Below are positions 15,681-29,684 of a stretch of DNA of 64,000 nt, piece after piece. The notes below the pieces were generated by a model. That model ran no database searches, was not told the DNA's origin, and saw only the letters and a list, made by a program, of their open reading frames with translations. The first letter of the stretch is position 1. Each line of letters starts with the position of its first letter. The position numbers were made by a program, and so were the translations under genes. The DNA is from Camelus dromedarius (lineage: Eukaryota), in the NCBI RefSeq assembly GCF_036321535.1, contig NC_087436.1, positions 43,526,001-43,590,000 on the forward strand, in the 5' to 3' direction.

Positions 15681-16904
15681 ATTGTATTGTAATATAGTAA
15701 TACAATAAGACAGGGGAATATCTGCCCTTCCTAAAAATAGCCCAAGCTGATTAGTGCTCTCTCATCATCAGTACTAATTAAATTGCCTAATTTCTCATTT
15801 GACACTCAAAAAATTTCCACAAAGTAAATAAAATTCATGCTAATTAAATGACCATTAGAAGAGTATAAACTTATTGGTGTAAAATTATTTTCCTTTCTTT
15901 TAACTTCTCTCCAAATTAAGTCTCTTCATTGTACCTGCCCAGAGTTTTGTAAGGCCCTTCAGGAAATTTCTAAGCAAAAATTAGAAATTTTTTTAAAATT
16001 CTAATTTTATATAAATGTTGAGTTGGTTTCTTCTCTTTTAGTATTCTCATATATCTTTTATTCATTGTAATGAATTTTTAATTTACTATAAAGGACCAGT
16101 ACGCTTCATTGCATCTAAAATGTCACTGGTCTTTTGCGTGACTGCAGTTAATGACATCACACAGCTCATGCAATAGTTCATAATGCAATTGTTTCCTCGT
16201 AACCAGACACCATGGTTTCTATAATACTTTAAATATTTCTTTTTGGAAATAAAGAGATTCTTCTAGACAAGGTTTATAACTTTAGAAAGAAATCAGATTT
16301 CCCCAAACCATGCATACAATAGCTATCCAAGACATTTATGTTCTATTATTTCTTTAAGTGTAATATTTCCCCCCCTTTTATTTAAATTTTTTTAATATAA
16401 ATAGAATCTGGAGAATTCTCCACACTGATGCAATCTATTTGAATTATCCAGAATCAAACTGCCTTATTGACAAACTTAGAGCAATCAATTTTATGAGCTA
16501 AGCTATTTTGAAGATAATTTTTTGATCACAGAAAACAAATCATAAGCCCTTAGGGAAAATAAATGACTTTGATGCACAAATCCCAATATGTTCGTTTTAT
16601 CTGTTGTATCTAATTTCTTTCCCCCACCTCCCTCATTCCACCAATGAATATGTTGGCAATGTGATCAACTTATTCATCTTTCCCTTCCCAGATAATGCTG
16701 ACAACAATTTCCTAGACTACAGAAAGAAAAGCCCTATCATATAGGTGTTACATTTCTCATAATTACACTGTTATTAAAACTATAACATCTTTATATTTCT
16801 GTTTACACAAAAGTTTATTTTTACCAAACTAGAACTTATACATTCCAACCTCTGTGTCTTTTTATAGAATTCCTTCTACAATAATATTAAAATACTAAAA
16901 GTAC

Positions 16905-16965
16905 CTTTTGCAACATGGCTGTCATTTGAAATATCAGTTCTTCATGTCCCTGTTCAGTTACTTAC
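16905..16965 (-). other. Candidate recursive-splicing (RS) exon, 61 nt
   Basis: Minus strand cttatatttccttttttgttcttttAG|GTAAGTAACTGA...GCCATGTTGCAAAAG|gtactt: a strong acceptor followed directly by consensus donor hexamer GTAAGT, and a second donor 61 nt on. Confidence 0.55.
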
Positions 16966-17198
16966 CTAAAAGAACAAAAAAGGAAATATAAGTTTGAAAT
17001 CACTTCAATTTATCATTAAGAACAGCTTTTACATTTATAATAAAAATAGGTCTGTAGTATGCACTAATAAATTCATTTATAAGAAAATTGTGACTCCATT
17101 ATAAATGCAAAAGAGCAACTGAAAATATGTAAATATTTCAAGAGCTCAGAAAACTAGGCAAAACAGAGTAGATGAAAAGATGGAAAAATAGCATACAC

Positions 17199-29466: not shown

Positions 29467-29494
29467 TTTTTCTTTCTCTTTCTCTTTCTCTTTC

Positions 29495-29554
<60 letters not shown>

Positions 29555-29684
29555 TCCTTCTTTCTTTCTTTCCTTCTTTCTTTCTTTCCTTCTTTCTTTC
29601 TTTCCTTCTTTCTTTCTTTCCTTCCTTCTTTCTTTCTTTCCTTCTTTCTTTCTCTCTTTCCTTCTTTCTTTCTCTCTTTCTTTT
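29467..29684. repeat. Compound (TTTC)n/(TTCC)n/(TTTCTC)n microsatellite, 218-bp pure pyrimidine tract
   Basis: Read directly; only C and T on the + strand. Confidence 0.98.

Follow-up and report, generated by a model that had tools for sequence, protein, structure and literature searches.

An alternative start exon of dromedary ANK2 that probably doubles as a promoter-dependent recursive-splicing exon

We find that a 61-nt exon on the minus strand of a 64,000-nt stretch of the dromedary genome (the window, by which we mean the whole stretch of DNA that was analysed) is almost certainly the known, annotated alternative start exon of ANK2, and that it probably doubles as a promoter-dependent recursive-splicing exon, in the manner of the CADM2 site with an overlapping alternative exon. 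The exon itself, and its human counterpart as a catalogued recursive candidate, are already known; what the dromedary locus adds is the donor logic and a one-base difference in frame between lineages. An initial annotation made from the letters alone had pointed to the same junction as an unannotated ratchet point. Its recursive-type overlap of acceptor and donor in a very long minus-strand intron stands, whereas the epithet "unannotated" does not, since many annotated ANK2 isoforms begin in this exon.

The host gene, which had been left unnamed with the proviso that a plus-strand host would speak against the reading, is ANK2 (ankyrin-B) on the minus strand. A ZU5 exon with 100% identity to dromedary Ankyrin-2 lies on that strand 394 kb downstream of the site, and additional ANK2 exons are found on the same strand and in order. 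Landmark searches of the contig recovered one Eph receptor match and no match for the claudin family. Splice-site and ORF scans of the surrounding 264 kb (the window with 100 kb of flank at either end) detected no CpG island or recognisable coding exon, which fits a giant intron. This intron runs for 407,789 bases from a CpG-island coding first exon to the first common ankyrin exon (the shared exon), and the 61-nt exon divides it into 159,322 bases upstream and 248,406 bases downstream (Table 1). Isoforms that splice a first exon of the CpG-island type to the shared exon are annotated (7 of the 120 matches listed in the search that identified Ankyrin-2, with a beluga-type start), and the site thus sits inside a very long intron from which the 61-nt exon is left out in some transcripts. 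The same CpG island also holds, on the minus strand about 290 bases upstream of the coding first exon's donor, a second ATG with a donor-like GAG|GTAGGT (L038:677-706), possibly another first exon.

Table 1. Features of the ANK2 locus around the 61-nt exon. Positions without a prefix are those of the window.
Feature	Position	Strand	Basis or remark
CpG-island coding first exon, 24 codons	donor CAG|GTGGGT at G000:C1:43702288	-	GC 0.67, CpG ratio 0.84
Candidate non-coding inner first exon	L005:9648-9900, donor CCT|GTAAGT at G000:C1:43619648	-	77 kb upstream of the 61-nt exon
Start of the 61-nt exon	G000:C1:43542965	-	
End of the classical first exon	G000:C1:43411058	-	
Start of the shared (first common ankyrin) exon	G000:C1:43294498	-	phase 0
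Branch-point-like CTTAT	16988..16992	-	sequence; branch A at -24; putative function
Polypyrimidine tract and acceptor TAG	16966..16986	-	sequence; rank by crude matrix
Intronic donor half GTAAGT at exon start, recursive-type site	16960..16965	-	sequence, site scan, human orthologue
61-nt alternative start exon of ANK2	16905..16965	-	peptide matches to annotated isoforms
Three stops, one per frame, lineage-dependent	16954..16964	-	sequence; primate isoforms open in frame
Three-codon upstream ORF (MKN), in a different frame from the start codon	16934..16945	-	sequence
Coding part MTAMLQK, phase 0	16905..16925	-	in frame with the shared ankyrin exon at G000:C1:43294498
Weaker donor of the exon itself, AAG|GTACTT	16899..16904	-	sequence; human annotated intron start matches

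The splice motifs are largely as first described. The TAG|GTAAGT junction is present on the minus strand at 16966/16965, as is a second donor, AAG|GTACTT, 61 nt further on at 16905/16904. The AG-free zone, given as about 36 nt, measures 35 nt (the nearest upstream AG is at -39/-38), and the pyrimidine tract with its single G is found at 16986-16968, reaching the 19 nt claimed for it when the T of the TAG is counted. Ranked with our own crude weight matrix, the acceptor is fourth among the 4370 minus-strand AGs of the window; both strands of the 264 kb hold two YAG|GTRAG sites with an acceptor score >5, this being the stronger of them. The site combines, by the same crude matrix, the YAG|GTRAG overlap with a strong acceptor and with a rebuilt donor that outscores the exon's own.

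The first 12 nt of the exon do contain a stop in every frame (TAA 16964-16962, TAA 16960-16958 and TGA 16956-16954), which is expected in 1.4% of random exons starting with GTAAGT. One of the three (a TAA) is inherent in the GTAAGT motif, and stops in three frames anywhere in 61 nt would be met with in 55% of cases by chance, making the stop cluster less telling. MTAMLQK (16925-16905) closes the exon in phase 0, and its frame is open for 19 codons after the first TAA, a point that the initial annotation missed. This open frame matches 0 Pfam families and, among solved structures, a single designed repeat at 1.2 bits per stretch, which is of no use; extended into the intron, it returned no candidate in a weak search of a large protein database. 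A genome search found no second copy of the exon.

The case for a start exon comes from annotated isoforms. It had been remarked in passing that inclusion could supply a new start, and this is in fact an established role, as mammalian isoforms starting with MTTMLQK attest. This peptide opens 112 of the best 120 of 3009 matches to the N-terminal 40 residues of the horse isoform, a set that was chosen by identity to the horse query, has no camelid row and speaks to breadth and not to frequency. The species with MTTMLQK among the matches listed include human, rat, rabbit, rhinoceros, red deer, yak, warthog and two whales, and in three of the 120 matches listed in the separate search that identified Ankyrin-2 (horse, orangutan and colobus) the peptide stands directly before the first shared ankyrin exon. 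The dromedary MTAMLQK agrees with it at six of seven positions, is the sole 6/7 match in the six frames of the 264 kb and ends exactly at the GT; the exon matches a gorilla isoform with 13/14 identity (E 6e-11 within the 264 kb). Its strand, its position upstream and its short phase-0 N-terminus before the first ankyrin exon are those of a start exon. A full-text literature search for the start peptide found no paper. Of 24 sequencing runs, the 14 presumed to be RNA contained between 24 and 91% of the sampled sequence words, an observation that we do not use as evidence. Cunha et al. 2008 reportedly described an ANK2 alternative first exon some 145 kb upstream of the classical one and, unlike in our reading, did not present it as a recursive site. 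The ends of the alternative and the classical first exons are 145,298 bases apart in human (PMC6110456) and 131,847 in dromedary.

Comparison of the isoforms suggests that the exon differs in length among lineages. Gorilla and two macaque species account for seven of the best 120 isoforms listed, in which the CpG-island exon is followed by 20 in-frame codons of the 61-nt exon and then by the shared exon. The first three of these 20 residues (VSN) match dromedary frame 0 (3/3) and 14 of the 17 others match the next frame; thus, the exon seems to have one base fewer in primates (60 nt versus 61 nt in dromedary) and no stop in that frame. Since the exon starts are shared (VSN, the first nine bases), the dromedary-primate difference comes down to one base. 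A shrew isoform also reads through the exon from an upstream start, and we infer a length of 62 nt for the shrew exon if the GT at its start belongs to a split codon. The exon start looks to be kept while the exon length drifts. If the dromedary exon were joined to the CpG-island exon, the reading would be VSN-stop: the frame would close after 27 codons, at a distance of 29 bases from the MTAMLQK start downstream. The all-frame stops had been likened to the premature stops of known RS-exons, but they are not a conserved poison feature because the exon is read in frame in the gorilla and macaque isoforms.

The recursive reading turns on a competition between donors, which is a published mechanism (PMC6224609). 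As the CpG-island exon ends in CAG, splicing it to the acceptor of the 61-nt exon rebuilds a consensus CAG|GTAAGT donor of 8.9 bits and -13.7 kcal/mol versus U1, as against 2.1 bits and -5.6 kcal/mol for the exon's own AAG|GTACTT (both by the crude matrix); agreement with the consensus is 10 of 11 positions for the rebuilt donor and 7 of 11 for the exon's own. In the mechanism that we propose, the first cut would splice the CpG-island exon to this acceptor and rebuild CAG|GTAAGT, and in the second the rebuilt donor would beat AAG|GTACTT, such that the exon and the downstream intron are removed together to yield the first-exon isoform. Transcripts from an inner promoter would fare differently: there the upstream exon would end in CCT, the rebuilt donor would be much weaker (3.1 bits, -7.0 kcal/mol by the crude matrix), the exon would be kept and the protein would start with MTAMLQK. 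By the crude scores the rebuilt donor is still slightly ahead of the exon's own donor after the inner exon, and for this reason inclusion there is not predicted from sequence alone. The two donors score close together, and inclusion with an MTAMLQK start becomes possible; the exon junction complex may help, and perhaps be needed for, such inclusion. This complex keeps the minor CADM2 exon included (PMC6224609).

The candidate inner exon has GC and CpG above its surroundings and contains an upstream ORF of 47 codons, for which the first TAA of the 61-nt exon would serve as the stop. In 37,008 donor-and-frame comparisons with the shrew N-terminus, the top score fell within the candidate's stretch, at another GT 41 bases upstream of its donor; the match of the candidate to the shrew isoform protein is piecewise and not significant (E 1.9). 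A rival location for the inner exon, at flank position 98683 with a 7/7 peptide match, was rejected: its neighbour is SINE-like, it is without a start codon and a stop comes soon after.

The orthologous human position has already been listed as a recursive site. In a recent preprint (Bass and Salzberg 2026, PMC13622621 Tables S1, S3, S5), hg38 chr4:112904455, in an intron of 468,198 bases, is a finalist of the class mutually_exclusive_exonic; it is supported by 449 target and 490 spliced reads, and its reads join the first exon to the orthologous acceptor in human brain RNA. The class denotes an annotated exon start that never co-occurs with the upstream exon in that study's annotation. An annotated human ANK2 intron, hg19 113825670-114095571 (Zhang 2018, PMC6110456), starts at the place that matches the exon's own donor; conversion via the shared intron end leaves 59 bases between the human site and the end of that annotated exon. 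The site lies in the same gene and the same intron in the two species, at the same relative place (39% in dromedary, 42% in human, with distance ratios of 0.80 upstream and 0.92 downstream). The conservation of AG|GTAAGT proposed at the outset is borne out as far as an AGGT at the human position with junction reads into it (PMC13622621) and the primate VSN start. In the preprint, ANK2 is named in the supplement and not in the main text; its GENCODE-based run does not call chr4:112904455, and by the Table S3 row the site is missing from the Sibley, Zhang, Hoppe and Wan lists. The Zhang 2018 pipeline discards annotated splice sites (PMC6110456). Another position of interest in Table S1 of PMC13622621 is human chr4:113374764. 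A literature search found no paper that treats recursive splicing and ANK2 together in its main text. ANK2 is absent from the supplements of PMC6224609 (5 files) and PMC10156609 (4 files), and across the 12 of 15 supplementary files of PMC6110456 that were covered it occurs solely in the putative-site table, at other positions among the rows listed.

These human data bear on the chief alternative, which we consider unlikely though still a serious contender: that this is an ordinary alternative exon, included after the inner promoter, at times also after the first exon, and in all other cases skipped in a single step, its GTAAGT start being incidental or silenced, e.g., by the exon junction complex. 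As we read the method, the human reads are evidence of the first cut only, and the same reads would arise from a mature isoform in which the exon is retained; given that gorilla and macaques have annotated isoforms with the exon in frame behind the first exon (the above seven of the best 120 isoforms), the junction reads do not prove recursive removal. Moreover, a donor is rebuilt at the upstream junction in 3.6% of human exons, 93.8% of which are constitutive (PMC6224609), and the tables searched in PMC6224609, PMC10156609, PMC6110456 and PMC13622621 hold no lariat or saw-tooth evidence for the ANK2 site. Against the ordinary-exon account, the rebuilt donor is well ahead of the exon's own in consensus positions (10/11 versus 7/11), strong rebuilt donors give skipping even with the exon junction complex present (PMC6224609), and the exon start seems kept while the length drifts from 61 nt in dromedary to 60 nt in primates.

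The version put forward by the initial annotation, a cryptic ratchet point whose poison exon is almost never kept, now seems highly improbable. The strong acceptor, the consensus donor half, the stops in all frames of the dromedary exon and the VSN-stop that follows its inclusion after the first exon would all suit such an exon; however, it is an annotated ANK2 start in many mammals (112 of the best 120 matches), and in gorilla and macaque the frame that enters it from the first exon stays open. Barely credible is a chance motif, or a 57-nt coding exon in decay that a GTAA duplication has disrupted, for which the tandem GTAA at the exon start and the 19 open codons after it might argue, and which we rejected on the frame comparison with the primate isoforms (VSN matching 3/3 and the other frame 14/17, with a shared exon start) and which also has the human AGGT at the same place against it (PMC13622621).

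The recursive reading can be extended, tentatively and with rather less assurance, to an ancient promoter-reading splice switch in ANK2, whose exon has drifted in length among lineages such that a stop in some corresponds to an in-frame insert in others. The exon would be a recursive stepping stone for transcripts of the outer promoter and a start exon for those of the inner promoter, its fate decided by the triplet with which the upstream exon ends (CAG versus CCT). Recursive removal would shield the first 40 bases of the exon from coding constraint and thereby permit the drift to 60, 61 and 62 nt; as a consequence of this drift, leaky inclusion after the outer exon would add 20 residues in frame in apes and Old World monkeys, and would lead to a stop with a short upstream ORF in camelids.

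Among known systems, the proposed promoter-dependent recursive exon most directly recalls its human counterpart at chr4:112904455, from which it differs in that the primate exon apparently measures 60 nt and continues the frame of the first exon, whereas the dromedary exon is 61 nt with an early stop. It shares with the second recursive site of CADM2 (RS2) a layout with a minor-promoter exon (10.1101/2025.08.14.666599), and one CADM2 site belongs to the same mutually_exclusive_exonic class (PMC13622621). CADM2 RS2 differs in having saw-tooth and reporter evidence, of which we found none for the ANK2 site, and the ANK2 exon differs in carrying a start codon; the read support of the ANK2 site is also about 15-fold below that of a comparable CADM2 site (449 versus 6864; PMC13622621). 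The cryptic RS-exons (CADM2 RS1, and CADM1 and ANK3 of Sibley 2015) resemble it in their very long first intron, the YAG|GTAAGT motif and an own donor that is the weaker one. The CADM2 RS1 exon is described as cryptic with a premature stop (10.1101/2025.08.14.666599), unlike the ANK2 exon, which is annotated, has a start codon and carries stops that are not conserved on inclusion.

If the recursive use is true, ANK2 would provide a second clear case, after CADM2, of a rebuilt donor reading promoter choice, and here the rebuilt donor would select the N-terminus of the protein. The balance of ankyrin-B isoforms could in that case be altered by variants in these few non-coding bases; ANK2 variants have been linked to cardiac arrhythmia, autism and epilepsy (PMC9386378; PMC5664424). 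The one-base difference between lineages constitutes a natural test of whether the stop matters.

A few other features of the stretch deserve mention. A motif scan marks a 57-nt phase 0-0 candidate exon in the ANK2 intron (window 27699-27643, minus), of which the donor, GAG|GTAAGT, is strong and the acceptor moderate, and an 81-nt candidate exon with one open frame and no Pfam match lies at 11008-10928 (minus). The segment at 22600-22290 looks coding by eye, has several stops in each minus frame and contains a 112-codon open frame on the plus strand. An AG|GTGAGT at 897-895 (minus) lies in a repeat with about 20 flank matches, has a low acceptor score and is probably incidental. Two plus-strand open frames in the surrounding sequence (L013:3978-4376 and L005:3733-4158) resemble what we take to be a ribosomal-protein L29 retrocopy and a cTAGE-like copy, and an array of TTTC-type units occupies about 215 bases of the window at 29469-29683.
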